Positions 4,494 through 26,054 of a DNA stretch of 32,000 bases are shown piece by piece. The first letter of the stretch is position 1, and the number at the start of each line of letters is the position of its first letter. The position numbers and the translations under genes were made by a program. Below the pieces are notes generated by a model. That model was not told where the DNA came from, searched no databases, and worked only from the letters and a program-made list of their open reading frames with translations. Source of the DNA: Rhodococcus sacchari (GTDB lineage: Bacteria; Actinomycetota; Actinomycetes; Mycobacteriales; Mycobacteriaceae); assembly GCF_025837095.1 (NCBI RefSeq), contig NZ_CP107551.1:2504668-2536667 (forward strand), given 5' to 3'.

Positions 4494-4497
4494 TCCC

Positions 4498-5397
4498 CTA
4501 CCGGCCGGGGTCGAGCATCGCCGCCGCGGTGGCACGATCGACCTCGGCACCGGTGGCCAGCGCGAACAGGCCGTAGCCGATCGGCGCGGCCTCCCACAGG
4601 TGTTGCGTCTGCGCCACCAGCCCCGGCCGGACCCGTCCCCCGGCGTCCACGTAGGCGTCGAGGGTGACCTGCAGCATCTCCGGTCCGGCCGCGCCGAACT
4701 GGATGACGAAATCGCGGGCCGGGTCGTCCACGCGTGCCGTCGTCCAGTCCAGCACCCCGGTGATCGCACCGTCCTCACCGAGCAGGACGTGCGCGGGATA
4801 GATCTCGCCGTGCGTCATCACGGTGCGGTCGGGCCAGCAGTCCTCGTCGGCGAGCCACGCGTCCCACGCCTCGACGAGCGCCGGGGCGACGGCGAAGGCG
4901 TCGCACACCCGGGCGATGTCCTCGGCCCAGGCCCGCCGCACCCGTTCGGGGTCGCGGACCTCCACTCCCCCGGCCGCGGCCTGCTCGGCGGTGATCGAGT
5001 GCAACCGCGCCAGCAGCCGACCCAGCCGGACCGCGTAGTCCGGGTCGGCCGGGTCCATACGCCAGTCTGGTTCACCGGCATCGGTGAGGACCAGACCGGG
5101 CGCGCCGGGCAGGGCCGGATAGGCGACGAGGTCGGCCGCGCGGACCTGCCAGTCCGGCACCGCGATCCCGTCGGCGGCGAGTACCGGGGCGACCAGGTCG
5201 AGGATGCGGATCTCGGCGGCCATGCCGTCGGTGACGTCGGGGCGGCGCGGCACCCGCAGCACCCACCGGCGACCCTCCCAGTCCGGGACCAGGATCACCC
5301 GGTAGTCCAGCCCGGCCTCGTTCACCACCGCGTGCTCGGCGGACAGGCGCAGCCCGTGCGCCGCGGCCAGGGCGAGGACATCGTCGATCGCGGTCAT
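4498..5397 (-). CDS. APH-fold phosphotransferase, macrolide 2'-phosphotransferase (Mph)-like
   Basis: 299 aa. Kinase catalytic-loop region THGEIYPAHVLLGEDGAITGVLDWTTARVDDPARDF matches the HGDxxxxH...DW...DP..D pattern of Mph/APH enzymes, with E in place of the usual D. ATG at 5397. Confidence 0.75.
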   Translation of the reverse strand: MTAIDDVLALAAAHGLRLSAEHAVVNEAGLDYRVILVPDWEGRRWVLRVPRRPDVTDGMAAEIRILDLVAPVLAADGIAVPDWQVRAADLVAYPALPGAPGLVLTDAGEPDWRMDPADPDYAVRLGRLLARLHSITAEQAAAGGVEVRDPERVRRAWAEDIARVCDAFAVAPALVEAWDAWLADEDCWPDRTVMTHGEIYPAHVLLGEDGAITGVLDWTTARVDDPARDFVIQFGAAGPEMLQVTLDAYVDAGGRVRPGLVAQTQHLWEAAPIGYGLFALATGAEVDRATAAAMLDPGR

Positions 5398-5440
5398 GCG
5401 ATCACCATGTCACCCACCCCGGCCCCGGAGCCACCGAATT

Positions 5441-5583
5441 ACCGGACGCGGTATCTCGGCTCGCGTCACCGACGCGGTGTCTCGGCTCGCGTCACCGACG
5501 CGGTGTCTCGGCTCGCGTCACCGACGCGGTGTCTCGGCTCGCGTCACCGACGCGGTGTCTCGGCTCGCGTCACCGACGCGGTG
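5441..5583. repeat. 26-bp tandem repeat array, about 5.5 copies (unit accgacgcggtgtctcggctcgcgtc)
   Basis: Variant copy at 5441-5467 (27 bp). Identical copies at 5468-5493, 5494-5519, 5520-5545 and 5546-5571. Half copy at 5572-5583. Each unit contains the mini-palindrome caccg-acg-cggtg. The array starts 3 nt from the uvrA stop codon (5587-5589). Confidence 0.95.
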
Positions 5584-5586
5584 CCG

Positions 5587-8523
5587 TCAGCTCGCGGCGG
5601 CGACCTTCTTCTTCGTCGTGCGGGTGGCCCGCTTGCGCGCCGGGGCACGCTTCGGTGCGGGGGTCTCCCGGCTGAGGATCTCGGCGAGGAAGCGGCCGGT
5701 GTAGCTCTCCTCCACCTCGACGACCTGCTCCGGGGTGCCCTGCGCGACCACCGTGCCACCACCGGAGCCACCCTCCGGACCCATGTCGATGATCCAGTCG
5801 GCGGTCTTGATCACGTCGAGGTTGTGCTCGATGACGATGACGGTGTTGCCCTTGTCGACCAGACCGTTGATCACGCCGAGCAGCTTGCGGATGTCGTCGA
5901 AGTGCAGGCCCGTGGTGGGCTCGTCGAGGATGTACGCGGTGCGGCCGTTGGACCGTTTCTGCAGCTCCGCGGCCAGCTTCACGCGCTGCGCCTCACCACC
6001 GGACAGGGTCGTGGCCGGCTGCCCGAGCCGCACGTAACCCAGCCCCACCTCGACGAGCGTGTTGAGGTAGCGGTGGATCGAGGTGACCGGCTGGAAGAAC
6101 TCCGCGGCCTCCTCGATGGACATGTCGAGCACCTCGGCGATGGTCTTGCCCTTGTAGTGGACCTCGAGGGTCTCGCGGTTGTAGCGGGCCCCGTGGCACA
6201 CCTCGCACGGCACGTACACATCGGGCAGGAAGTTCATCTCGATCTTCAGCGTGCCGTCGCCGGAGCATGCCTCGCAGCGACCACCCTTGACGTTGAAGGA
6301 GAACCGGCCCGGCTGGTAGCCGCGCACCTTCGCCTCGGTGGTCGACGCGAACAGGGTGCGGATCTTGTCGAACACACCGGTGTAGGTCGCGGGATTCGAG
6401 CGCGGGGTGCGGCCGATCGGCGACTGGTCGACCTGCACGAGCTTGTCGAGCTGGTCGAGCCCGTTCACGCGGGTGTGCCGGCCGGGCACCTGCCGCGCGC
6501 CGTTGAGCTTGTTCGCCATCACCGTGGCGAGGATGTCGTTGACCAGGGTGGACTTGCCCGAGCCGGACACCCCGGTGACACAGGTGAGTACCCCGAGCGG
6601 GAACGACACGTCGAGCTCGCGCAAGTTGTTCTCCCGGGCACCGACGACGGTGACCTGCCGCTTCGGGTCGATCGGGCGGCGGAGCTCCGGGATCGCGATC
6701 TCCTCGCGGCCGGACAGGTACGCGCCGGTCAGCGAGTCGGGATTGTCGAGCAGCTCCTTGTAGGTGCCGCTGTGCACGACCTGACCGCCGTGCTCCCCGG
6801 CGCGCGGTCCGATGTCGACCACCCAGTCGGAGGCGCGGACGGTGTCCTCGTCGTGTTCGACGACGATGAGGGTGTTGCCGAGATCCCGCAGCCGCGTGAG
6901 GGTGTCGATCAGGCGCCGGTTGTCGCGCTGGTGCAGGCCGATGGACGGCTCGTCGAGCACGTACAGCACGCCGACGAGACCCGACCCGATCTGGGTGGCG
7001 AGGCGGATGCGCTGGGCCTCGCCGCCGGAGAGGGTGCCCGCGGCGCGGGAGAGCGTCAGGTAGTCGAGGCCGACGTCGAGCAGGAAGCCGAGCCGGGCCT
7101 GGATCTCCTTGAGCACCTGGCCGGCGATCGCGGCCTCCCGGTGACCGAGCACGAGGCTGTCGAGGAATCGGGCGCAGTCGGCGATCGACAGCTCGCACAC
7201 CTCGGCGATCGACTTCGGACCGAAGTCGCCGGCGGAGACGGTCACCGACAGGATCTCGGGGCGCAGGCGGGCCCCGTTGCAGGCCGGGCACGGGATCTCC
7301 CGCATGTAGCCCTCGTAGCGTTCCTTCGCCTGGTCGGACTCGGCCTGCTCGAGGCGACGGTGCAGGAAGGGCATCACGCCCTCGAACTCGGCGTAGTACG
7401 AACGGACCCGGCCGTAGCGGTTCTTGTACCGCACGTGCACCTGCTCGGTGCTGCCCTCGAGCACGGCCTTGCGGACCTTCGCGGGCAGCTTCCGCCAGGG
7501 GGTGTCGATGTCGAAGCCCATGACGTCGGCGAGACCGGACAGCAACCGGCCGAAGTACTCGGCGCTCTGTCCCGACGACCACGGGGCGATCGCGCCGTCG
7601 GCCAGGCTCAGGTCAGGGTCGGGGACGACCAGTTCGGGGTCGACCTCCTTGCGGACGCCGAGACCGGTGCACTCGGGGCAGGCACCGTAGGGCGAGTTGA
7701 ACGAGAACGAGCGGGGCTCGAGCTCGTCGATCGATAGCGGGTGGGCGTTCGGGCACGCGAGCTTCTCGGAGAAACGGCGTTCGCGGTCGGGGGCGTCCTC
7801 GTCGCGGTCGACGAAGTCGAGGACCACGACCCCCTCGGCGAGGCGCAGCGCGGTCTCGATCGAGTCGGTGAGGCGCTGCTGCGCGCTGGCCTTGACCGCG
7901 AGGCGGTCGACGACCACCTCGATGTCGTGCTTCTCCTGCTTCTTCAGCTTCGGCGGATCCGTCAGCGGGTGGACGACGCCGTCGACGCGCACGCGGGAGT
8001 AGCCCTGCACGGTGAGCTGCTCGAACAGGTCGACGAACTCGCCCTTGCGGGTGCGCACCACCGGGGCGAGCACCTGGAAGCGGGCGCCCGGTTCCATCTC
8101 GAGCACCTGATCGACGATCTGCTGCGGCGTCTGCCGGGAGATCTTCTCGCCGCAGACCGGGCAGTGCGGGGTGCCGGCGCGGGCGTAGAGCAGGCGGAGG
8201 TAGTCGTAGACCTCGGTGATGGTGCCGACGGTGGACCGCGGGTTGCGGTTGGTCGACTTCTGGTCGATCGACACCGCGGGCGACAGGCCCTCGATGAAGT
8301 CGACGTCGGGCTTGTCCATCTGCCCGAGGAACTGGCGGGCGTAGGCCGACAGCGACTCGACGTAGCGGCGCTGCCCCTCGGCGAAGATCGTGTCGAAGGC
8401 CAGGCTCGACTTGCCGGAACCGGACAGGCCCGTGAAGACGATGAGACTGTCCCGCGGCAGATCCAGGTCGACTCCGCGCAGGTTGTGTTCCCGCGCACCA
8501 CGCACGATCAGGCGGTCTGCCAC
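5587..8523 (-). CDS. uvrA: excinuclease ABC subunit A
   Basis: 978 aa: [65 protein letters not shown]... Contains two ABC ATPase modules, zinc-finger cysteines ([24 protein letters not shown]...CEVCHG) and LSGGEAQR twice. GTG at 8523 is preceded by AAAGGA. Confidence 0.98.
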
Positions 8524-9371: not shown

Positions 9372-9385
9372 CGCAGCCGCGGAGA

Positions 9386-9470
9386 TCGGTGTCGTCGGGG
9401 TCGGTGTCGTCGGGGTCGGCGTCGGCGGGGTGAGCAGGTCGCCGTCGGGGTGCACCGGCCGTCGGGGTGC
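9386..9470. repeat. G-tract repeat region: 15-bp tandem x3 (tcggtgtcgtcgggg) followed by gccgtcggggtgc x2
   Basis: Tandem units at 9386-9400, 9401-9415 and 9416-9430 (third has 2 mismatches). gccgtcggggtgc at 9441-9453 and 9458-9470. This gives five GGGG runs on the + strand between the MBL stop and the PKS start. Confidence 0.85.
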
Positions 9471-9540
9471 GCGCCGGCCCGCGCGCAGGAATCTGCACCA
9501 CCGATGCACGGAACTCCGCTTCCGGAACAGGGGCCGCGGA

Positions 9541-9546
9541 TAGAAT
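9541..9546 (+). promoter_or_regulatory. candidate -10 hexamer TAGAAT upstream of the PKS gene
   Basis: TAGAAT lies in the locally AT-richer stretch ggaTAGAATcgaaatctgcg, 47 nt upstream of ATG 9594. No convincing -35 element was found. Confidence 0.3.
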
Positions 9547-9593
9547 CGAAATCTGCGACGGCTCGGGGGGCTTCCGGTTAGGGGCGATCTCGG

Positions 9594-9692
9594 ATGACCG
9601 ATCAAGCGACACTGCTCGACTACCTGAAGAGAGTGACCGCCGAGCTCTACCAGGTGAAAGAGAAGCTTCGCGAGTCCGAGGCCGTGCGTCAC
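9594..9692 (+). other. PKS N-terminal coiled-coil / docking-like segment
   Basis: [33 protein letters not shown] lies immediately before KS1. This heptad-like pattern is typical of N-termini of non-first PKS subunits. Confidence 0.6.
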
Positions 9693-12600
9693 GAACCGAT
9701 CGCCGTCATCGGGATGGGCTGCCGGTTCCCCGGTGGTGTGCGGTCGCCCGAGGACCTGTGGCGCGTGGTCGAATCCGGTTCGGAGACCGTCACCGGCTTC
9801 CCCGAGGACCGAGGCTGGAATGCGGCCGCTCTCTACGACCCGAAGGCGGATCGGGCCGGCAAGACCTACACACTGCAGGGCAGCTTTCTCGACGACCCGG
9901 CGGGATTCGACCCCGAGGTCTTCGGCATCTCCCCACGCGAGGCGCTGGCCATGGACCCGCAGCAGCGTCTCCTGCTCGAAACCAGCTGGGAGACCTTCGA
10001 ACATGCCGGTCTGGATCCGCGGTCCGTGCACGGTTCCCGGGTCGGGGTGTTCACCGGTCTGTCCGGCATCGACTACGCGGCGCGGGCCGGGGGCCGGCCA
10101 CCCGCGGATCTCGAGGGGTACTTCATCACCGGCAACGCGATGAGTGTCGCCTCCGGGCGGGTGGCGTACAGCTTCGGTCTGTCCGGACCGGCGATCACCG
10201 TCGACACCGCATGCTCGTCGTCGCTGGTGGCCATCCATCTCGCCATGCAGGCACTGCGGGGCGGCGAGTGCGAACTGGCGTTGGCGGGCGGCGCGACCGT
10301 CATGGCGACGCCGGGGGTCTTCGTCGAGTTCAGCCGCCAGCGGGGACTGGCCCCCGACGGGCGCTGCAAGGCGTTCTCGGCCACCGCCGACGGCACCGCG
10401 TGGGGTGAGGGCGCGGCGATGGTCGCGTTGGAACGGCTGTCCGACGCACAGCGCCACGGGCGGCGGATCCTCGCGGTGATCCGGGGCAGCGCGATCAACC
10501 AGGACGGTGCCAGCAACGGCCTGACCGCACCGAACCGGCAGGCCCAGGAACGCGTCATCCGGCAGGCACTGACCGATGCCGGGCTCGGCCCGGGCGACGT
10601 CGACGTGGTCGAGGCGCACGGCACCGGCACCACCCTGGGCGATCCGATCGAGGCATCCGCCCTGCTGGCGACCTACGGCCGCGAGCGTCCCGCCGACCGG
10701 CCGCTGTGGCTCGGCTCGGTGAAGTCGAATCTCGGGCACACCCAGGCCGCCGCCGGGGTGGCCGGGGTGATGAAGACGATCATGGCGATGCGGCACGGCG
10801 TCCTGCCGAAGACCCTGCACGTCGACCGGCCCACCCCGCACGTCGACTGGTCTTCCGGATCCGTGGCCCTGCTGACCGAGCACCGGGAGTGGCCCGAACT
10901 CGACCGGCCCCGCCGGGCGGCGGTCTCCTCGTTCGGCATCAGCGGCACCAACGCGCACGTCGTCCTGGAACAGTCCCCGCCGGCCGAGGCACCGGCCCCC
11001 GACCGGACGGCGCCCACGGGTGAGTTCGTGGCCTGGTGCGTGTCCGGCCACACCGAGTCCGCGCTGCGCGCCCAGGCCGAACGGTTACGCGACCACGTGT
11101 CGGCCCACCCCGACCCGACGCCTGCCGCGGTCGCCGGGGCGCTGCTGGGCTCGCGTGCCACCTTCGACCACCGCGCCGCCGTCATCGGTGCACGGTCCGA
11201 GACCCTGCTCGGCGGTCTCGACGCACTCGCGCGCGGCGCCCCGAGCGCCGACGTCGTCACCGGTGTGGCGGTGGAGGCCGGGGACCGACCGGTGTTCGTC
11301 TTCCCCGGTCAGGGGTCGCAGTGGGTCGGGATGGCCGCGGACCTGCTGGACACCTCACCGGTGTTCGCCGATGTCGTGCGCGACTGCGCCGAGGCACTGG
11401 CGCCGCACACGACGTTCGCGCTGCTCGACGTGCTGCGTGACCGGGATCCGGCGTCGCTGGACCGCGTCGACGTGGTGCAACCGGCACTGTTCGCGATGAT
11501 GGTCGGGCTCGCCGCGTTGTGGCGCTCCCACGGGGTCGAACCCGCGGCGGTGGTCGGGCATTCGCAGGGTGAGATCGCCGCCGCTCATATCGCCGGTGCG
11601 CTGAGCCTGTCCGATGCGGCGCTGGTCGTCGCCGCGCGCAGCCGGGTGATCGCGGCGTCGGCGCGGCGCGGCGGCGGGATGGCGTCGGTGGCGCTTCCCG
11701 AGGACGCGGTGCGGGATGCGATCGCTCCCTGGGCCGGTGCCGTCGAGGTGGCCGCGATCAACGGGCCGTCCACGACGGTGGTGTCCGGTCCCGTCGAGGC
11801 ACTCGACGAACTGGTCGGGCGGTGGCGGGAGGACGGCGTCCAGGCCCGCCGGATCGCGGTGGAGTACGCCTCGCACTGCGCGGACGTGTCGGTGCTGCGC
11901 GAACCGATCCTCGACGTGCTGGCCCCGGTCCGTCCGCGCCGGTCGAGGATTCCGTTCTACTCGGCGGTGACCGGCGGCGAGCTGGACGGTGCCGCGCTCG
12001 ACGCCGAGTACTGGTACCGGAATCTGCGCCACCCGGTCCGTTTCGAGCAGGCGACGAGAATGCTGGTCGCGGACGGGTACCGCCTGTTCGTCGAGTCGTG
12101 CAGCCATCCCGTCCTGACCGTGCCGATGCAGGAAACGCTCGACGCGGAGGGCGTCGCCGGTCGTGTCGTCGGCACTCTCCGGCGCGACCGGGCGGACCTG
12201 CGTCAGTTCACCGCCGCACTCGCGGACGCGTACGTCCACGGTGTGCAGGTCGACTGGGAGCGGGTGCGGTGGGCGCGGCGCCCCGAAGGGCAGCCGTGGG
12301 TGGACCTGCCCACGTACGCATTCCAGCACCGCCGCTACTGGCTGGACGCCCCCGCGCCGGAGGGTGATGTCGCGTCGGCCGGCATGGACACGGGTGGGCA
12401 TCCGATGCTCGCCGCGTCGGTCGACCTCGGTGACGGCCGGGGCGCGGTGTCCACGGGGGTGCTGTCCCTGCGGCGGCTTCCGTGGCTGCACGACCACATG
12501 GTCGGCGACATCGTCGTGCTGCCCGGCACGGCTTTCGTGGAACTCGCGCTGCACGCGGGCAGCCGCGTCGGCTGCGATCGGCTCGACGAGCTCACCCTGG

Positions 12601-15600
12601 AGGCGCCGCTGGTGATCCCCGCCGACGGTGAGGTCGCGGTGCAGGTGAGTGTGCTCGCCGACGCCGGGACCGGCCGATACGCGGTGTCGGTGCACTCGCG
12701 GCCTGCGGACTCCCCGCCGGACACGTCGTGGACCCGGCACGCCACCGGCACGCTCACGACCGCGGTCCTGGGCGGCGCCGATTTCCCGGAACCGCAGTGG
12801 CCACCCACCGGTGCCGCACCGGTCGACGTCCGCGGTCTCTACGACCTGCTCGACGAGGCCGGCTACGGGTACGGTCCGGTCTTCCGGGGTCTGCGGGCGG
12901 CGTGGCGCCGCGGCGACGACATATTCGGTGAGGTGCGCCTGGGCGGTGAGGATCCGGCCGCGGTGGTCGCGGGGTACGGGATCCATCCGGCGGTGCTCGA
13001 TGCCGCTCTGCACCTGATCGCGCTCGGAGCCACCGAGACCGGTGTGCGGATGCCGTTCGCGTGGCGGGACGTGCAGGTGCATGCCGTGGGCGCCTCCGCG
13101 CTGCGGGTGCACGTCGCCGGGACCGGACCGGAGCGCTATCGGGTGTCGGCCTACGACGCGGCCGGCCGGCCGGTGGTGACCGCGGACTCGCTGACGCTGC
13201 GGCCTCTCGGGGAGACGGGTGTTCCGGTCCCGGGGGCCGGCGCCGGCCTCTACCGCGTCGAGTGGGTGCCGGTCGCGCCGCCGGCGGACCCGATGCCGGT
13301 GGACCTGCTGCCGCTGCCGGAGGCGCTCGCCGGGGACGATCCCGCCGGTCGTGTTCTGTGGCTGCCCGCCACACCGGGCATCGAACCCGATACACCGGCC
13401 CGCGCGCACGCCGCAGCCGAGGCGACGCTGCACGCGGTGCAGTCCTGGCTCCGGGACGAACGCCTGGCCGACACCCACCTGCTGGTCACGACGAGGCACG
13501 CGGTGGTGGTCCGGGACGACGAACCGCCGGTCGACGATGTCGCCGCCGCACCCGTCCGGGGCCTGCTCGGTGCCGTGCAGAACGAGCATCCCGATCGCAT
13601 CACCCTGGTGGACCTGGACGGACCGTCCGGCGAACTCCCCGATCCGGCGTTGCTGTCGGCAGCTCTGTCCTGCAACGAATCCCAGCTGGCGGTCCGGGAC
13701 GGGGCGCTGCTGACACCGATGCTCGCCGCGGTGGCACCCGCCGCGGCGACGCCCGACACCGGTGCGCCGCCCTTCGGCCCGGACAGCACGGTTCTGATCA
13801 GCGGGGGCACCGGGACCATCGGCCGGCTGATCGCCCGCCACCTCGCCGGCCGGTACGGGGTGCGCAGGCTCGTGCTCACCGGTCGGCACGGACTCGACGC
13901 CGAGAGCGCGGCCGCGCTGCGCGCCGAGTTCGCCGCCACCGGAACCGACGTCGAGATCGCCGCGTGCGACGTGGCCGACCGCGCGGCGGTGGCCGCGCTG
14001 CTCGACGGCATTCCCGGCCTCACCGGCGTGATCCACGCCGCCGGGGTGCTCGACGATGCCACCGCCGCCACATTGAGCGCGGAGCAGTTGCACGCGGTGC
14101 TGCGGCCCAAGCTCGACGGCGCCTGGCACCTGCACGAGCTCACCCGCGAACGGGACCTGACCGCGTTCGTGCTGTTCTCCTCCGCCGCCGGGGTCCTCGG
14201 CGGCGCCGGACAGTCGAACTATGCGGCGGCCAACGTCTTCCTCGACGCCCTCGCCCAGCACCGCCGCGCCCGCGGGCTCCCGGCGATCTCCCTGGCCTGG
14301 GGGTTGTGGGATCGCCCGAGCGGCATGACGTCCCATCTCGATGCCGGCGACCTGGACCGGTTGCAGCGCAACGGCATCGACACCATCGACGTGGACTCGG
14401 GGCTGACCCTGTTCGATGCCGCACTCGCCGCGAACCGTCCCCTGCTCGTGCCGCTGCGGCTCTCGAGGTGCGCCGCGCACACCGAGGGGGCCACGCTGCC
14501 GCCGATCCTGCGCCGGGTCCTCGGGAGCCGGCGCCGCCGGGTCGCGGCCACCGCATCGTCGACCGGACTCGCCGACGAGCTGCGCGCGTCGGACCCCGGC
14601 GACCGGTACGGCCGGGTGCTGGACATCGTCACCACCCACGTGGCCGCGGCCCTCGGCTACGACGACAGCGAAGCGATCGACCCGGGGCGGGCGTTCAAGC
14701 AGCTCGGCTTCGACTCGCTCACCGCGGTGGAATTGCGCAATCAGCTGGCCACTGCGACCGGCGTCAAGCTGGCCGCGACGGTGGTGTTCGACCATCCCAC
14801 CGCGGACGCACTCGCGCGGGAGCTGCTCGACCGCCTGCTCGGCAGCGAGACCGCTCCGCAACCGGCGACCGCCCCCGTCCGCACCCGCCGGGACGACGAC
14901 CCGATCGCCATCGTCGGGATGGCCTGCCGGTATCCGGGTGAGGTGCACTCCCCCGACGATCTGTGGCGACTCGTGCGCGACGGCCGGTGCGCCGTCGGCG
15001 AGTACCCCCTCAACCGGGGCTGGAATCTCGACGAGGTGTACGACCCCGATCCGGAACGGACCGGCACCACGTACATGAGGGAGGGTGGATTCCTCTACGA
15101 CGCAGACGAATTCGACGCCGCGTTCTTCGGGATCAGCCCGCGCGAGGCGATCGCGATGGATCCGCAGCATCGATTGCTCCTCGAAAGTGCCTGGGAGGCG
15201 CTGGAACACGCGGGGATCCGGCCGGACGCCCCCGGCCTGTCCGATACCGGTGTCTACATCGGACTGATGGGTGGCGACTACGGCTTCCACCTGATGACCC
15301 GGCGCGACGTCGACGCCGAGGGTTACCTGATGACCGGGACCAGCAACAGCGTGGCCTCCGGCCGGATCGCCTACGCGTTCGGGTTCACCGGTCCGGCGGT
15401 CACCGTCGACACGGCCTGCTCGTCGTCGCTGGTGGCCGTGCACCTCGCGGCCCGCGCGCTGCGGGACGGGGAGTGTGCGCTGGCGCTGGCCGGGGGCGCG
15501 ACGGTGATGGCCACTCCGGGTGTGCTGGTCGAGTTCAGCCGGCAGCGCGGGCTCGCGCCGGACGGCCGCTGCAAGCCGTTCTCGGACCGGGCGGACGGCA

Positions 15601-18600
15601 CCGGGCTCGGCGAGGGCGCGGGAATGGTGGTGCTCGAACGGCTCAGCGACGCCGAACGCCACGGCCACCGGGTGCTCGCGCTCGTCCGCGGCTCGGCGGT
15701 CAACCAGGACGGGGCCTCCAACGGCCTGACCGCCCCGAACGGGCCGTCCCAGGAACGCGTGATCCGGCAGGCGCTGGCGTCCGCCGGACTCGGTCCCGCG
15801 GACATCGACGCCGTGGAGGCGCACGGCACCGGCACGCGACTCGGGGATCCGATCGAGGCGCAGGCGCTGCTGGCCACCTACGGGCAGCAGCGGGACGGGC
15901 GGCCGCTGTGGCTCGGATCGATCAAGTCGAACATCGGCCATGCGCAGGCAGCGGCCGGGGTGGCCGGCATGATCAAGATGGTGATGGCGATGCGGCACGG
16001 GGTGCTGCCGCCGAGCCTGCACGGCGACACACCGACCCGGCACGTCGACTGGACCGCGGGAGAGGTTGCGCTGCTCGCCGAACCGGTGCCGTGGCCGGAC
16101 ACCGGACGGCCCCGGCGCGCCGGGGTGTCGTCGTTCGGGATCAGCGGCACGAACGCGCACGTGATCCTCGAGCAGCCGCCCACACCCACGCCGCCGGAGG
16201 TGACGCCGCCGCCGGCGGTCCCACTGGCCTGGGTGCTCTCGGGAAGGACCGAGCAGGCGCTGCGCGCGCAGGCGGCTCGGCTGGCGGAATTCTGTGGGAG
16301 CGCGGATCTCCCGGATCCGGCCGACCTCGCGTACTCGCTGGCCACCACCCGGTCCGGTTTCGCCCACCGCGCCGCGGTGGTCGGCACGACACCGGCCGAG
16401 CTGCTCGACGGCCTGACCCGCCTCGCGGCCGGGCGGTCCGGCGGCACCGTCGTGACCGGAACGAGCACCCGGGGCCGGACGGCGTTCATGTTCACCGGTC
16501 AAGGTGCGCAGCGCATCGGGATGGGGCGCGGCCTGTACGAGACCTACCCGGTGTTCGCCCGCGCCCTGGACGAGGTGTGCGCCGCGCTCGACGAGCACGT
16601 CGAAATCCCGGTGCGGCAGGTGCTCTGGGACGACACCGGCGGTGCGCTCGACCGCACCGAGTACACCCAGCCGGCGCTGTTCGCCGTCGAGGTCGCGCTG
16701 TACCGGTTGCTGCGGGAGTGGGGCCTCGGCCCCGATTGTCTGATCGGCCATTCGATCGGCGAGATCGCCGCCGCCCACGTCGCGGGGGTGTTCGACCTGC
16801 CCGATGCCGCCGCCCTCGTGGGTGCTCGCGGCCGGTTGATGCAGTCGACCGAACCGGGCCTGATGCTCGCCGTGCGGGCCGGTGAGCAGGACATCCTGTC
16901 GCGGATCGACGGCCGTGTCGACCTCGCCGCCGTCAACGGCCCCGACGCGGTCGTGCTGTCGGGCGCCGAACGCGACATCCGCACCGTCGCCGCCGAGCTG
17001 TCCGCCGCCGGGCTGCAGACCACGACCCTGAGGGTGGGCCGAGCCTTCCATTCGGCCTTGATGGAACCCGTCCTCGATCGGTTCACCGCCGTGGTGGCGC
17101 GGCTGAGGCCGCAGCCACCGGAGATCCCGGTGATCTCCGACGTCACCGGACGCGTCGCGACGGCCGAGGAACTCGCGTCCCCGGACTATTGGGCCCGGCA
17201 CCTGCGGCACACCGTGCGTTTCCACGACGGGGTGCGCACACTCGACGGCCTCGGCGTCACCCGCGTGGTCGAGGTCGGTCCCGGTGCGACCCTGACGTCG
17301 CTCGCCTCCGAGCTCGTACCGACCGCGATCGCCACGTTGCCCGGTCGCGGCGACGAGGCACACGAGGTCGTCGAGGCAGTGGCCGCGGCGTTCGTGCACG
17401 GCGTCACGATCGACTGGGATCGGATGCTGCCCGGCCGCCGCCGGGTGGAGCTGCCCACCTATGCGTTCCAGCGGCGGTCCTTCTGGCCGACCGCACCGAC
17501 GCGCGCGAGCGGCGATCCGGTGGAACTGGGGCTGAGCGCAGCCGGTCATCCCCTGCTCGGTGCCGTGGTGCCGCTCGAGGACGACGCGGTGATGTTCACC
17601 GGACAGCTGTCGCTGCACCGGGATTCGTGGCTCGTGCCGTCACCGTCGGACGACGATGCCGAGCCGTCGTCCGATGAGGAGAAGACGGTGCTGCCGACGG
17701 TGCTGGTCGATCTCGTCCTGCACGCGGCGCACCATGTCGGTCTCGGCCACGTCGCCGAACTCACCGTGCACCGTCCGCTCCTGCTCGCGCCGTCGGGGCA
17801 GGCGTCGATCCGTGTGCACGTGTCGGCGCCCGCCAGTGACGGCAGTCGCACGGTCACGATCTCGTCCACCCCGAACGAGACCGAGGGTGCGGACACCTGG
17901 ATGCGGAACGCCTCGGCGACGATCGACGATGTCGCCGCACCCGGTGGGGCACCTCGCGTCGCGGTCGACGCCGACACCGAGGTGCAGCTCGACACCGACA
18001 CCGAGGTGCACCTCGACGACGGCACCGACACGGACGGTTTCGGCATCCATCCGGAGCTCCTGCAGGCGGCGCTCGCACCGCTGCTCGGCGAGGGCGACAC
18101 GCCGCTGGTCTGGTCGGGGATCCGATTGCACAGCGTCGGCGCGGAGGCATTGTCGGTGAGCGTCGACGCCTTCGGGAACGGCCGGTATCGCGTACTCGCC
18201 GTCGATACCGCCGGTGCGCCGGTCCTGACCGTCGACGCACTGCAGGTCGGGACACCGGCCGGCAGGCCGGGGGCAGCACACGCGGCGGCGCGGCGACTGC
18301 ATCGGCTGTCCTGGGTGCCGGTCGAGACCTCCGCGGCGGACGAGCGGACGCGGACGGTGCTCGTCGAGTGCCGTCCGGCCGGTGGGCCCGGGCCCGACGC
18401 CACCCATGAGCTGTGCACCCGGGTGCTGCGCGTGTTGCAGGAGTGGCTCGACGACGAGGACGCGGACGGAACGCTCGTGCTCGTGACCCGCCACGCGACG
18501 GTCACCGGCACCGAGCCGGACGGCGCGACGGACATCGATCCGGCGGCCGCGGCGGTGTGGGGGCTCGTGGGCTCCGCGCAGAGCGAGAATCCGGGCCGAT

Positions 18601-20099
18601 TCGTGCTGGTCGACCTCGACGACGCGGCGGACCCCGAAACCGCGATCGCGGTCGCGCTGGCAAGCGGGGAACCGCAGTCGGCGGTCCGCAACGGCACCGT
18701 GCTCGCGCCGCGGGTGCGGCCGCTGCGGGTCGTCGACGAGTCCGGTTCACCCTTCGATCCCGACGGCACCGTCCTGATCACCGGCGGTACCGGCACGCTG
18801 GGGGCGCTGCTCGCGCGGCACCTGGTGACCGCCCACGGGGCACGGCACCTGCTGTTGACGAGCCGCCGCGGACCGGCCGCCGAGAGATGCGACCGGTTGC
18901 TGCGCGAACTGGACGATCTGGGGGCCGAGGTGCGGGCGGTGGCCTGCGACACGACCGACGAGATCGCGCTCGCCGAGGTACTGAACGGGATACCGCCGGC
19001 GCATCCGCTGACGGCCGTCGTCCACGCGGCCGGCGTGATCGACGACGCCACCCTGACCTCGCTCACCCCCGGACGCCTCGACGCGGTACTGCGGCCGAAG
19101 GTCGACGCGGCCTGGCATCTGCACCGGCTGACCGCGACCTCCGACCTGCGGGCGTTCGTCGTGTTCTCGTCCCTCGCCGGCATTCTCGGGTCGCCCGGGC
19201 AGGCGAACTATGCCGCGGCGAACATGTTCCTCGATGCGCTCGCCCGGCACCGTCGTGCCCTCGGTCTGCCCGCGCTCTCGATCGCGTGGGGCATGTGGGC
19301 GTCGCCGAGCGCGATGACCGGCGAACTCGGCACGATCGATCTTGTCCGGTCCCGCCGTAGCGGCATGGTGCCGCTGACCGCGGACGACGGCCTGGTCCTC
19401 TTCGACCGCGCGGTGGCGGCCGGGGTGCCCACCGTGGTGGCCGCCCGGTTCGACCACGCCGGCGCAGCCGCACCCTTCGTGCCGGCGCCGCTGCGCGGCC
19501 TGATCCGGGAATCCCGTCCGCGGGCCGCGGGCCCCGCGGCGACCGGATCCACCGGTGCCGGGTCGTCGGAGTGGGCGCAGCGTCTTGCCGAGCGGTCGGT
19601 GCCCGCGCAGCGGCATCTGATGCTCGAGCTGGTCCGGGGCGCGGCAGCCACGGTCCTCGGCTACGACAACCCGGACGCGGTCGACCCGGAGCAGGCGTTC
19701 AAGGAACTCGGGTTCGACTCGCTGGCCGCGGTGACACTGCGCAATCAGCTCGGGGCCGCCACCGGGCTGCGGTTGCCGCCGACGCTGGTGTTCGATCACC
19801 CGAATCCGCGGGCGGTCGCCGAGTTCCTGCGCGCGGAACTGGTTCCGGATCCGATGTCGGTCGTCTGTGCCGACATCGACCGGCTCCGGCTGGACCTCGC
19901 CGAGGTCGGGGAGGACAGGCAGGCGCGGTCCGCGATCGCGGAGCGGCTGGAACACCTACTGGCCGAGATCCGGGCCGACGGCAAGGCCGGTGCCGAGGCG
20001 GTCGATCGGATTCGCGCGGCGACCGGCGAGGAGATCCTGAACCTGATCGACCGTGATCTGGGACCCGGCAACGGGCGCGATCCGTCCGGCAACGGGTGA
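9594..20099 (+). CDS. bimodular type I polyketide synthase: Ndock-KS-AT(methylmalonyl-type)-DH-KR-ACP-KS-AT(malonyl-type)-DH(degenerate)-KR-ACP-Cdock; no loader, ER or TE
   Basis: 3501-aa ORF. Module 1: KS1 ([40 protein letters not shown]); AT1 (GHSQGE, RVDVVQP, YASH); DH1 ([33 protein letters not shown]); KR1 (GGTGTIG, LDD, YAAAN); ACP1 ([10 protein letters not shown]). Module 2: KS2 ([40 protein letters not shown]); AT2 ([18 protein letters not shown]); DH2 lacking His and Asp; KR2 (GGTGTLG, IDD, YAAAN); ACP2 ([10 protein letters not shown]). Confidence 0.95.
9693..10973 (+). other. PKS domain KS1 (ketosynthase)
   Basis: Runs from [15 protein letters not shown] to [10 protein letters not shown]. 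The active-site Cys codon is at 10212-10214. Both His motifs are present. Confidence 0.85.
11289..12256 (+). other. PKS domain AT1 (acyltransferase, methylmalonyl-CoA-type signature)
   Basis: [50 protein letters not shown]. Confidence 0.8.
12399..13209 (+). other. PKS domain DH1 (dehydratase, apparently active)
   Basis: HPMLAASV...[25 protein letters not shown] (catalytic His present), GYGPVFRGL, and [13 protein letters not shown] (catalytic Asp present). Confidence 0.75.
13788..14309 (+). other. PKS domain KR1 (ketoreductase catalytic subdomain, B-type LDD)
   Basis: [59 protein letters not shown]. The structural subdomain lies upstream, at about 13250-13787. Confidence 0.75.
14614..14840 (+). 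other. PKS domain ACP1
   Basis: [18 protein letters not shown]. The phosphopantetheine Ser codon is at 14715-14717. Confidence 0.8.
14898..16175 (+). other. PKS domain KS2 (ketosynthase)
   Basis: Runs from [15 protein letters not shown] to [10 protein letters not shown]. The Cys and both His motifs are present. Confidence 0.85.
16479..17417 (+). other. PKS domain AT2 (acyltransferase, malonyl-CoA-type signature)
   Basis: [52 protein letters not shown]. Confidence 0.8.
17547..18255 (+). other. PKS domain DH2 (degenerate, predicted inactive)
   Basis: HPLLGAVV...LSLHRDSWL is followed by [18 protein letters not shown] (17634-17687) where the HxxxGxxxxP motif should be. [12 protein letters not shown] has Gln (18063-18065) where the catalytic Asp should be. 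Confidence 0.7.
18768..19298 (+). other. PKS domain KR2 (ketoreductase catalytic subdomain, IDD variant)
   Basis: [59 protein letters not shown]. Confidence 0.75.
19614..19843 (+). other. PKS domain ACP2
   Basis: [18 protein letters not shown]. The Ser codon is at 19719-19721. Confidence 0.8.
19844..20096 (+). other. PKS C-terminal helical tail / docking-like segment (not a thioesterase)
   Basis: [78 protein letters not shown]. About 85 aa with no GxSxG, ending in the ...E(E/L)xxLIDxxLG pattern typical of C-terminal docking domains. Confidence 0.55.
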
Positions 20100-20152
20100 G
20101 TGCCGAGCACGCTCCGCCGAACCCGGACCCTGTCGATTCGATCGGGGACATC

Positions 20153-20401
20153 TCACTGATCGGCATCGTCCGTGCTCGGCTCCGCCTGTTCGTCCGTGGA
20201 CGCCCGCTCGTCCCTCGTCCGCTCCTCGCCCGAGTCCGCGAACGCCGTCCCGGAGACCATCCCGTTCGTCCCCGGCACGGTTGTGGTCTCCCGCGCGCCG
20301 GGTTCGTACATCCGGTCCATCTCCTCGGCCTTCTCCCGCGCCCGCTGCCTGGTCTCCTCGTCGAGGTCGGCCCATTCGGCGCGGTGGTGGCTCTCGCTCA
20401 T
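20153..20401 (-). CDS. small acidic hypothetical protein (82 aa)
   Basis: MSESHHRAEWADLDEETRQRAREKAEEMDRMYEPGARETTTVPGTNGMVSGTAFADSGEERTRDERASTDEQAEPSTDDADQ. ATG at 20401 lies 7 nt after GGAG. GC3-rich codons. No family recognised. Confidence 0.5.
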   Translation of the reverse strand: MSESHHRAEWADLDEETRQRAREKAEEMDRMYEPGARETTTVPGTNGMVSGTAFADSGEERTRDERASTDEQAEPSTDDADQ

Positions 20402-22422: not shown

Positions 22423-23463
22423 ATGCTCGTTCGGAGAATCGCGCGGCCCATGCTCGCGTCCATATTCATCGCCGGGGGCGTCGACGCCCTGCGCAAACCC
22501 GAGCCGAAGGCGGGTGCCGCGCAGCCCGGCCTCGATCAGGCGTTGAGCGCCCTGCCCGCCTCGGTCACCGACCGGCTGCCCAGCAGCCCCGAGACGCTCG
22601 TGCAGATCAACGCCGCGGTGCAGATCGGCGCCGGCGCGCTGCTCGCCCTCGGCAAGGCCCCGCGGCTCTCCGCGCTGGCCCTGGCCGGCACCCTCGTGCC
22701 GACCACCCTCGCCGGCCACGACTTCTGGAACGCCGACGACCCGGCCACCCGCGCGCAGCAACGCACCCAGTTCATCAAGAACGTCAGCCTCCTCGGTGGT
22801 CTGCTCATCGCCTCGGTGGACACCGAGGGCAAACCGTCGCTGGGCTGGCGTGGCCGCCGCGCCGCGCGCCGCGCGCAGCAGTCGGTCGCCGCGGTGCTGC
22901 CGGGCTCGTCGCCGGACCATCGGAGTGAGGCCCTGACGGAGGGTCTGCACACCGTCGCCGAGCGGGTGAAGGTCCTCGCCGACGAAGCCGGTGAGCAGGG
23001 CGGGCATCTGCTCGATGTGGCGAAGGAACGCGGACCCGAGCTGGCCGAGGTGGCCCGCGAGCGTGGCAGCGGTCTGCTGGAGGTCGCGCGGGATCGCGCG
23101 CCGGTCCTCGCCGAGCGGGCGCGGGAACGCGGCTCGGAGATCCTCGAGCTGGCCCGTGATCGCGCGCCGGAGCTCGCCGACGAGGCCCGCGGCCGCGGCA
23201 CCGAGCTGCTCGGTCTCGCCCGCGAACGCACCCCCGAACTCGCCGAGGTGGCCCGCGAGCGCGGCGCGAAGCTGTGGGACACCACCCTCGACCGCAGCGA
23301 GGAGTGGGCGAAGCTGGCCGAGGAGCGGTCCGCGCTCCTGAACGCGAAGGCGCTCGCCGCGGCGGAGAAGGCCCGGGCCCGCGCCGAGGAGGCCCGCAAG
23401 CAGGCCGAGAAGGCGGAGAAGAAGCTCGCCGCCAAGCTGGCGAAGCTGGAGAAGAAGAAGTAG
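22423..23463 (+). CDS. DoxX-family membrane domain fused to an 11-residue-repeat amphipathic region and a Lys/Ala-rich tail
   Basis: N-terminal ~135 aa (IARPMLASIFIAGGVDALRKPEPKA...QFIKNVSLLGGLLIASVD) resemble DoxX. Then come 11-mers such as ELAEVARERGS and GLLEVARDRAP. The C-terminus is AEKARARAEEARKQAEKAEKKLAAKLAKLEKKK. ATG is preceded by GGGAGGAAG. Confidence 0.78.
   Translation: MLVRRIARPMLASIFIAGGVDALRKPEPKAGAAQPGLDQALSALPASVTDRLPSSPETLVQINAAVQIGAGALLALGKAPRLSALALAGTLVPTTLAGHDFWNADDPATRAQQRTQFIKNVSLLGGLLIASVDTEGKPSLGWRGRRAARRAQQSVAAVLPGSSPDHRSEALTEGLHTVAERVKVLADEAGEQGGHLLDVAKERGPELAEVARERGSGLLEVARDRAPVLAERARERGSEILELARDRAPELADEARGRGTELLGLARERTPELAEVARERGAKLWDTTLDRSEEWAKLAEERSALLNAKALAAAEKARARAEEARKQAEKAEKKLAAKLAKLEKKK
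23005..23268 (+). repeat. coding tandem repeat, 8 x 33 nt (11-aa units)
   Basis: Units: HLLDVAKERGP, ELAEVARERGS, GLLEVARDRAP, VLAERARERGS, EILELARDRAP, ELADEARGRGT, ELLGLARERTP, ELAEVARERGA. Two more degenerate units follow. Confidence 0.85.
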
Positions 23464-25978: not shown

Positions 25979-25999
25979 CCGGGCACCGCGGGAACGACG

Positions 26000-26036
26000 A
26001 CGGCCGCCGCATCGCGGGGTGCGGTGCGGCGGCCGT
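26000..26036. terminator. bidirectional hairpin between convergent helD-like and USP genes
   Basis: acggccgccgca (26000-26011) and tgcggcggccgt (26025-26036) form a 12-bp perfect stem with a 13-nt loop. There is no U-tract, which is common in GC-rich actinobacteria. Confidence 0.5.
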
Positions 26037-26054
26037 GGGTCCGTCGGTGGACGG

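Follow-up and report, generated by a model that had tools for sequence, protein, structure and literature searches.

What can a single assembly-line gene make when nothing around it supplies a start, a partner or a release step? This question is raised by a stretch of 32,000 nucleotides of the Rhodococcus sacchari chromosome (NCBI RefSeq assembly GCF_025837095.1, contig NZ_CP107551.1, positions 2,504,668 to 2,536,667 of the forward strand; hereafter, the window), in which one very large open reading frame (ORF) encodes a bimodular type I polyketide synthase (PKS) with docking-type elements at both ends. The analysis described here suggests that the gene is a functional, mobile PKS that travels alone, and makes it plausible that its product iterates by passing chains between copies of itself, as reported for the mycobacterial synthase Pks12.

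Architecture and predicted chemistry of the synthase

The PKS gene occupies positions 9594..20099 of the forward strand as a single intact 10.5-kb reading frame with an ATG start, encoding 3501 amino acids (aa) (UYP17334.1 / WP_264151023.1, from Rhodococcus sp. Z13, that is, R. sacchari). The window has a GC content of about 71%, as befits a high-GC actinomycete chromosome (here 4.53 Mb), and the frame-specific values for the PKS ORF (0.89 at third codon positions, or GC3, and 0.76 at first positions, or GC1) mark it as a true reading frame; its length, its GC3 and its full domain matches together place it far beyond chance. Ten domains lie between the two docking regions, in the order Ndock-KS-AT(methylmalonyl)-DH-KR-ACP-KS-AT(malonyl)-DH(dead)-KR-ACP-Cdock, where KS is ketosynthase, AT acyltransferase, DH dehydratase, KR ketoreductase and ACP acyl carrier protein:

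9597..9683, + strand, aa 2-30: N-terminal docking helix (Pfam PF08990, 24.5-25.6 bits, cut-off 20.9)
9693..10823, + strand, aa 34-410: KS1, active-site Cys/His/His present (Pfam, motifs)
11292..12248, + strand, aa 567-885: AT1, methylmalonyl-type (Pfam, motifs RVDVVQP/GHSQG/YASH)
12399..13217, + strand, aa 936-1208: DH1, both halves, catalytic motifs intact (Pfam, motifs)
13371..14312, + strand, aa 1260-1573: psiKR1 and KR1, B-type LDD, catalytic Tyr (Pfam, motifs)
14628..14822, + strand, aa 1679-1743: ACP1, GFDSL (Pfam, motifs)
14898..16025, + strand, aa 1769-2144: KS2, active-site Cys-His-His (Pfam, motifs)
16485..17303, + strand, aa 2298-2570: AT2, malonyl-type (Pfam, motifs YTQPALF/GHSIG/RAFHS)
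17547..18263, + strand, aa ~2652-2890: DH2 remnant, only the N half (PF21089, aa 2652-2758) detected by Pfam
18357..19301, + strand, aa 2922-3236: psiKR2 and KR2, B-type IDD, catalytic Tyr (Pfam, motifs)
19629..19829, + strand, aa 3346-3412: ACP2, GFDSL (Pfam, motifs)
19830..20096, + strand, aa 3413-3501: C-terminal docking region, 89 aa after ACP2 (PDB matches, AlphaFold2 helices)

A preliminary description of this locus, made from the sequence alone, had proposed the same KS-AT-DH-KR-ACP-KS-AT-DH*-KR-ACP layout in one 3501-aa ORF, and ORF, Pfam and motif evidence bears it out. The methylmalonyl- and malonyl-type motif strings that it gave for AT1 and AT2 are present exactly as described, and its N-terminal docking helix was recovered by PF08990 above the cut-off and by a match to the N-terminus of Lsd14. 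The C-terminal docking tail, put there at about 85 aa, measures 89 aa and is matched by Lsd14-complex and DEBS2 chains, with the motif named in that description followed by 11 further residues. The Pfam scan of the protein, which also serves as a check for an overlooked thioesterase (TE), reductase (R) or enoyl reductase (ER) domain, reported no ER (ADH_zinc_N/ADH_N), thioesterase, reductase (NAD_binding_4), AMP-binding or condensation domain, and the gap from DH to KR in the PKS modules is only 165-185 aa (psiKR), as opposed to the ER expected of a fully reducing module. With KS Cys-His-His residues, an AT in each module, the ACP DSL serine and KR/DH domains recognized through Pfam, motifs and PDB matches, the protein has the features of a cis-AT modular type I PKS; what it lacks is an assembly-line cluster, there being no further PKS, loader or TE in the window or beside the orthologues described below.

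The motifs allow the chemistry of each module to be predicted. The AT1 strings are identical in all orthologues and those of AT2 (YTQPALF/GHSIG/RAFH) are kept in them, pointing to methylmalonyl as the AT1 substrate and malonyl as that of AT2. DH1 keeps its catalytic His/Pro motif and GYGYGP, and DH2 has lost its His motif, reads HPELLQAAL with Gln replacing the catalytic Asp, and carries an acidic insertion. The B-type motif of KR1 is LDD in the window protein and LED in orthologues; that of KR2 is IDD. Module 1 would thus be expected to add methylmalonate and to reduce and dehydrate it to an (E)-2-methyl-enoyl unit, and module 2 to add malonate and reduce it to a 3-hydroxy unit, so that each pass would add C5H8O (84.058 Da) to give R-CH=C(CH3)-CH(OH)-CH2-CO-S-ACP2. 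Across the five aligned proteins, active-site motifs show either identity or conservative changes, and DH2 is dead alike in 5/5. Because of this shared retention and loss, the enoyl group after module 1 and the hydroxyl after module 2 appear to be a fixed trait.

A probably mobile single gene

When one genome from each species was scanned, with the matches listed giving a lower bound, at least four full-length orthologues emerged, from R. opacus 1CP, Rhodococcus sp. T7, Rhodococcus sp. NPDC057529 and R. tibetensis; the remaining matches listed are generic PKSs at about 40% identity. These four proteins are 3524-3536 aa long, 75-77% identical to the window protein and collinear with it over residues 1-3489. 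Members of R. opacus, R. jostii RHA1 (ABG96022.1) and R. koreensis also fall into a 74-member cluster at 90% identity, and a homologue search with the DH2-psiKR2 segment retrieved only fragments of at most 720 aa. Two possible signs of wider transfer were discarded: no plasmid-borne copy that could serve as a vehicle was present in PLSDB, where every match is below 60% identity, and fragments labelled 'Streptomyces sp. NPDC058171' do not document spread across genera, as one of them (P0269) sits in a 90%-identity cluster with R. koreensis proteins and that assembly is likely contaminated or mislabelled.

The orthologue neighbourhoods share nothing with the window, and the PKS is a lone gene in three unrelated chromosomal contexts within Rhodococcus. 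Members of the R. opacus group are flanked upstream by an HTH regulator and a methyltransferase and downstream by DUF732, pirin, leuA and ctaD genes. The R. tibetensis gene lies 190 bp after a tRNA-Met gene (R. tibetensis locus 1812-1887), a typical island integration site, and directly at its stop codon, with no gap, starts an ORF for a WS/DGAT acyltransferase with an intact HHxxxDG motif (HHAMADG; R. tibetensis locus 12686-14023), beyond which come a 4HBT thioesterase gene and then paa genes. The WS/DGAT and 4HBT proteins are candidate release enzymes in R. tibetensis only. None of the three contexts contains a second PKS (within 2-10 kb), an FAAL or a TE. The two upstream genes of the R. 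opacus group are a class I methyltransferase gene (locus L001 955-1851, - strand), divergent from the PKS, and an HTH_20 regulator gene (L001 210-926, + strand), which might serve in tailoring or regulation and both of which are absent from the window.

Selection on the gene, which is purifying, was estimated as dN/dS by the Nei-Gojobori method:

Whole gene: 0.17-0.25
KS domains: 0.04-0.14
ACP domains: 0.02-0.23
N-dock: 0.07-0.19
C-dock: 0.16-0.39
DH2 remnant: 0.45-0.59 (relaxed constraint)

In R. sacchari itself, the PKS gene is a clean single-gene insertion in the uvrA-uvrB housekeeping block relative to R. rhodochrous, by either gain in R. sacchari or loss in R. rhodochrous. To its left lie, in order, pheT, pheS, a SpoU methyltransferase gene, rplT (UYP17328), infC, DUF1844, an APH kinase gene, uvrA and an MBL hydrolase gene (UYP17333); to its right are a small acidic ORF and genes for a PhoD-like phosphatase (UYP17336), DoxX (UYP17337), a HelD-type helicase, Usp (UYP17338) and an HTH_67 protein, followed by uvrB, DUF402 and GrpB. 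We take this gene order to resemble that of the Rv1633-Rv1650 region of M. tuberculosis. Genomes of the R. rhodochrous group, whose MBL protein belongs to the same 90%-identity cluster as that of the window, have the order pheT ... uvrA, MBL, an 83-aa gene, PhoD, DoxX, HelD ... Usp, HTH_67, uvrB with no PKS, and in their loci (L088-L091) the spacing from MBL to the small minus-strand gene is 84 bp. By blastn, nucleotide homology to one of these loci, L088, runs up to the MBL stop codon at 9373 and begins again at 20206. The PKS locus is also present in two metagenome assemblies. Three features describe the inserted segment:

9374..20205, + strand: segment absent from the R. rhodochrous-group site, 10.8 kb (220 bp upstream, the PKS gene and ~106 bp downstream)
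9386..9431, no strand: unit of 15 bp repeated in tandem (TCGGTGTCGTCGGGG, 3.1 copies), just past the MBL stop codon at the segment's left edge
9536..9557, + strand: upstream motif GCGGATAGAATCGAAATCTGCG, from an alignment of the upstream regions of five orthologous genes

The upstream-region alignment shows no copy of the tandem repeat before the orthologues. The 22-bp upstream motif, in contrast to the repeat, is found in all five species 37-60 bp before the start codon, with the consensus GCGGATA[GC]A[AC]TCGA..TC[TC]GCG, in front of the same gene and beside unrelated flanking genes. It is unique in the window and contains a -10-like TAGAAT/TACAAT 37 bp before the ATG; a sigma-70 scan with an E. 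coli-type consensus gave no match at 9536..9557. The motif is probably the PKS gene's own promoter or 5' leader, and the gene seems to carry this expression signal along as it moves. Neither tRNA genes in the window nor integrase or transposase genes among the window ORFs scanned were found. The ORF and Pfam scan of the 32 kb agrees with the preliminary description that no loader, FAAL/FadD, TE, R domain, second PKS, PPTase or tailoring gene is present, and the solitary character of the gene that it had noted is strengthened by the single-gene insertion relative to R. rhodochrous and by the solitary orthologues in two other contexts. The adjacent MBL hydrolase was considered as a release enzyme and rejected, because it belongs to synteny conserved in the PKS-less R. 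rhodochrous group and is thus no PKS accessory. From these sequence comparisons, we regard it as highly probable that the PKS is a functional, self-contained and mobile single-gene synthase.

Other differences were noted in the same chromosomal block. An APH-family phosphotransferase gene (4498-5397, - strand; window 4497-5610) is a second strain-specific single-gene insertion, R. rhodochrous having only about 190 bp between DUF1844 and uvrA. Conversely, a 139-aa gene between HelD and Usp in R. rhodochrous (L088 16758-17177) has no counterpart in the window, whose HelD-Usp gap measures 77 bp (25979-26054). The DoxX-family protein (22423-23463, + strand) finishes in a long run of repeats rich in Ala, Glu and Arg (...ELAEVARERG..., with KLAKLEKKK as the last residues), a C-terminal extension that is unusual for DoxX, and this extended size (346-358 aa) is retained in the R. 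rhodochrous group.

Docking ends, possible iteration and its alternatives

Pks12, the mycoketide synthase of M. tuberculosis, offers the closest functional model for such a gene. It is bimodular, has no releasing domain and takes acyl-NAC starters directly (Chopra et al. 2008, PMC2443190), and its first module is methylmalonyl-specific and its second malonyl-specific, as that work is summarised by Holder et al. (2011, PMC3169528). Its C-terminal linker has 81 aa and three helices, its N-terminus is a coiled coil, and it forms higher oligomers; iteration is lost when the N-terminal linker is swapped or E20 is mutated (PMC2443190). Like Pks12 (Rv2048c), the R. sacchari protein has two complete modules on one polypeptide with a methylmalonyl AT followed by a malonyl AT (assigned by motif in R. 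sacchari), no loader or releasing domain, a long helical C-terminal linker (81 aa in Pks12, 77-89 aa in the Rhodococcus PKSs) and a coiled-coil N-terminus, and like Pks12 it is encoded by a lone PKS gene outside any multi-PKS cluster. Unlike Pks12, which is 4151 aa long, has an ER in each module and is fully reducing, giving a saturated chain, it has no ER and a dead DH2. Candidate downstream genes lie near Pks12 (lipT, Rv2047c, ppm1), whereas the R. sacchari PKS has no conserved neighbour, and self-docking was demonstrated by experiment for Pks12, whereas the R. sacchari PKS is known from its sequence.

By analogy with that system, our preferred reading is Pks12-like self-docking and intermolecular iteration by PKS homodimers, which we consider plausible while holding it with rather less than even confidence. 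The class-1a N-terminal coiled coil of one homodimer would bind the class-1a C-dock helix of the next, head-to-tail, and the growing chain would move from ACP2 in one dimer to KS1 in the following one, the 'modularly iterative' mode described for Pks12. Such a synthase would build a lipid in which a five-carbon 2-methyl-enoyl/3-hydroxy unit recurs. Priming would probably occur by direct acylation of KS1 from an acyl-CoA or acyl thioester, as with Pks12 in vitro, or alternatively by self-priming through decarboxylation of methylmalonyl-ACP1, and release might be carried out by an unlinked hydrolase or acyltransferase, of which the R. tibetensis WS/DGAT is a possible case. Head-to-tail docking of homodimers is proposed because conservation extends to both class-1a ends and the gene moves without a partner subunit. 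A larger claim, that this is a one-gene, mobile, ER-less system that polymerises head-to-tail on itself, the second 'modularly iterative' PKS and the first beyond fully reducing chemistry, arisen independently from an assembly-line subunit, is possible and should be treated as tentative.

Several observations on the termini are consistent with self-docking. The best PDB match of the N-terminus is the N-terminal docking helix of Lsd14 (7s6b_A, E 8e-6), and the C-terminal 104 aa are best matched by the ACP-docking chain in the same entry, a Lsd14 complex (7s6b_E, E 2.7e-8), with the DEBS2 C-terminus also matched. In an AlphaFold2 model, the C-dock comprises three predicted helices, of which helix 3 is the last, followed by an 11-aa tail absent from orthologues. 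Helix 3 (EEIL[ND]LIDR) is identical in the four other species and shares 11/14 residues with the window protein, a conservation above the protein average, from which we argue that it still binds something. For comparison, we assembled 49 natural adjacent PKS subunit pairs from fetched PKS loci, which sort into the two classes that Thattai et al. (2007, PMC1994986) described for actinobacteria: C-terminal heads of the type '...DELFDFIDxELG' (LFxxIDxELG) pair only with N-terminal tails of the type '...YLKRxxxxL...', and '...IDEMDxxxLIxMAL' heads pair with '...VEALRASLKE...' tails. Both the head and the tail of the R. sacchari PKS belong to the first class (H1-T1 / class 1a): its N-terminal coiled-coil tail of ~27 aa stands directly before the KS in the same register as 38 natural tails, and its head helix fits the ..[DE]E[ILV][FL]..[IL]D.[ED]LG type. 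Such a shared class, H1-T1, is necessary for self-docking. The natural tails nearest to that of the PKS, from Micromonospora, are partnered with DEVFDFIDRELG heads, which are of the IDRELG type like the PKS head, and the Arg of 'IDR', itself uncommon, is found together with Val at the 'QV[KR]' position of the tail in 2/4 versus 1/29 cases, a post hoc comparison (Fisher p 0.03, n=33).

A number of results weigh against iteration by self-docking. Class membership is necessary, though not sufficient, for docking in the account of these classes given by Thattai et al. (PMC1994986). No positive self-docking signal emerged from the AlphaFold2 and interolog tests: a leave-one-out interolog score built on 33 non-redundant pairs reached an area under the curve of 0.74, and 77% of non-cognate pairs score at least as high as the N/C pair of the PKS; AlphaFold2 without an alignment gave the expected helices at low confidence for a fused C-dock/N-dock construct (pLDDT 67, pTM 0.52), and a tandem (C-N)x2 construct with natural linkers gave a pLDDT of 53 and a pTM of 0.24. 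A Foldseek search with the fused-termini model returned only generic helical bundles at E > 0.5. Conservation of the termini alone is no proof of docking either, because the N-terminal coiled coil and C-terminal helices 1-2 are also dimerisation elements, as described in the relevant parts of PMC1994986 and PMC2443190. No conserved neighbour in the three contexts supplies priming or release. Lastly, sequence similarity points elsewhere: generic giant modular PKSs share 50-59% identity with module 1, as against the 41% to Pks12 published for a Rhodococcus orthologue and a Pks12-type protein (Holder et al. 2011, PMC3169528), although the 50-59% range, from a search with residues 1-1200 ranked by summed score, which favours giant PKSs, expresses a level of identity and not a phylogeny. 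PDB scores for DEBS and Lsd14 modules (~1000-1370 bits) are higher than those for mycobacterial MAS (808), MAS-like PKS (655) and Pks13 (546). Judged by these comparisons, the protein looks like an ordinary cis-AT PKS of the assembly-line kind and not like a member of the Pks12 family. Of the idea that it represents the Pks12 layout stripped of its ERs, the layout itself thus stands, in that AT order, the absence of TE and loader, and the helical termini correspond to PMC2443190, while descent from Pks12 is not supported.

The same facts lend themselves to a simpler account, in which the PKS is a stand-alone synthase that works in a single pass: an acyl starter, for example a FAS I fatty acyl-CoA, would be extended once by each module to a 3-hydroxy-4-methyl-alk-4-enoyl chain and then hydrolysed or transferred by an unlinked enzyme, and the docking-type ends would be an assembly-line inheritance kept mainly for dimer stability. 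We regard this as a serious possibility, if on balance a somewhat doubtful one. It is the simplest reading for a collinear modular PKS with a sequence typical of assembly lines, it is compatible with the absent docking signal and the dimerisation role of the termini, and a product resembling a lipid may be transferred, judging from the WS/DGAT next to the R. tibetensis orthologue. It sits less easily with helix 3, which has no known dimerisation role and yet hardly varies among species with an overall difference of 23-25%, with the purifying selection on the C-dock, and with the length of the C-terminal region, since non-docking iterative or stand-alone PKSs have C-tails shorter than 25 aa (PMC2443190), against 77-89 aa in Rhodococcus. 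Because the docking helix and N-terminal tail are conserved and class-matched, and a gene that moves alone has no other plausible partner, we slightly favour iteration over the single pass.

Docking elements might instead be retained for partners elsewhere. Class-1a elements at both ends give the protein the look of an internal subunit such as DEBS2, and it could be the middle subunit of a split assembly line whose other PKS subunits, loader and TE are encoded elsewhere in the genome; R. jostii RHA1, for one, has been reported to have seven PKSs (PMC2947987). We think this unlikely. In R. sacchari, whose genome is small, the indel comprises a single gene, and with three contexts devoid of another PKS within 2-10 kb the partners would have to be co-inherited, unlinked, in every host. 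Pks13 has, to our knowledge, no class-1a docking ends. Most Rhodococcus genomes hold no more than one or two clusters for type I PKSs, one of which is pks13 (Ceniceros et al., PMC5550956), and candidates for a docking partner are therefore few. Least credible, and in our view very improbable, is that the gene is an orphan relic of a larger cluster, carried horizontally with no current product. The dead DH2, the lack of accessory genes in its contexts and the patchy distribution within the genus would fit such a history, but the 10.5-kb ORF is open in at least five species, dN/dS is 0.17-0.25 over the whole gene and ~0.1 for KS and ACP domains, the catalytic residues outside DH2 are intact, DH2 being dead identically in all orthologues, and the upstream motif is conserved with the gene.

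Relation to other synthases and significance

Outside the Pks12 comparison, the nearest structural relatives are DEBS2 (EryAII) and the Lsd13/Lsd14 interface (PDB 7s6b), which share with the R. sacchari protein a bimodular cis-AT organisation, a class-1a N-terminal coiled coil and a three-helix C-dock, and which give the top PDB scores. Unlike this PKS, which has no PKS neighbours in three contexts, DEBS2 and Lsd14 work once per chain between cognate neighbours from the same cluster. MAS-type PKSs (Mas, Pks2, Pks5) resemble it as lipid-type synthases of Mycobacteriales that use acyl starters and have no loading module; unlike it, they consist of a single fully reducing module that iterates intramolecularly and ends in a helix-free C-tail of 11-13 aa (PMC2443190), as opposed to two modules, no ER and an 89-aa helical C-terminus. 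One apparent link to Pks12 did not survive scrutiny. Rfam RF01782 'ASpks', the pks12 antisense small RNA, matches the window at 10650-10724 (- strand) in KS1 with 58 bits and at 15855-15926 (- strand) in KS2 with 81 bits; because unrelated Micromonospora and Saccharopolyspora PKS loci used as controls match equally well, these hits represent conserved KS coding sequence only, and we rejected them both as a tie to Pks12 and as a small RNA.

The comparison with Pks12 is not new. The preliminary description knew of no characterised system with this layout, whereas the Pks12-like idea is 15 years old and was published for the same genus: in Holder et al. (2011, PMC3169528) the 3527-aa protein OPAG_06239 from R. 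opacus PD630 is named a 'type 1b synthase', present in a single copy in each of PD630, B4 and RHA1, and is presented as a PKS12 homologue with 12 domains, for which tail-to-head oligomerisation was proposed. The length and host of OPAG_06239 are consistent with membership of the opacus/jostii orthologue cluster, which includes ABG96022.1 and R. opacus entries. Orthologues of the R. opacus 1CP group have the same motifs, dead DH2 and termini as the window PKS in a different chromosomal context. The 12-domain claim for OPAG_06239 is a misfit, because the orthologues are collinear with the ten-domain, ER-less window protein and leave no room for two ERs; the 2011 picture, which equated the Rhodococcus 'type 1b synthase' with a 12-domain PKS12, is corrected here to ten domains and no ER. 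Our literature search found no experimental study of this Rhodococcus family. What is new is thus an ER-less, solitary, bimodular PKS with class-matched docking ends for which, judging from its primary structure, iteration is plausible; it is not categorically new.

In conclusion, intermolecular 'modularly iterative' hand-over rests on one experimental system, Pks12 (2008), and has never been generalised. The Rhodococcus PKS family, which appears evolutionarily nearer to standard assembly-line PKSs than to Pks12, provides a clean second test case, consisting of one gene with no accessory genes that is present or absent at an otherwise identical locus (R. sacchari versus R. rhodochrous) and has orthologues in the genetically tractable strains R. 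jostii RHA1 and R. opacus PD630. Should the family prove not to iterate, it would still represent a minimal, mobile, two-module lipid-modifying PKS. If iteration is true, matched docking ends alone could make an assembly-line subunit iterative, which would be relevant to PKS engineering, and the family would be a sign that Rhodococcus makes a class of methyl-branched hydroxy-polyene lipids not yet described.

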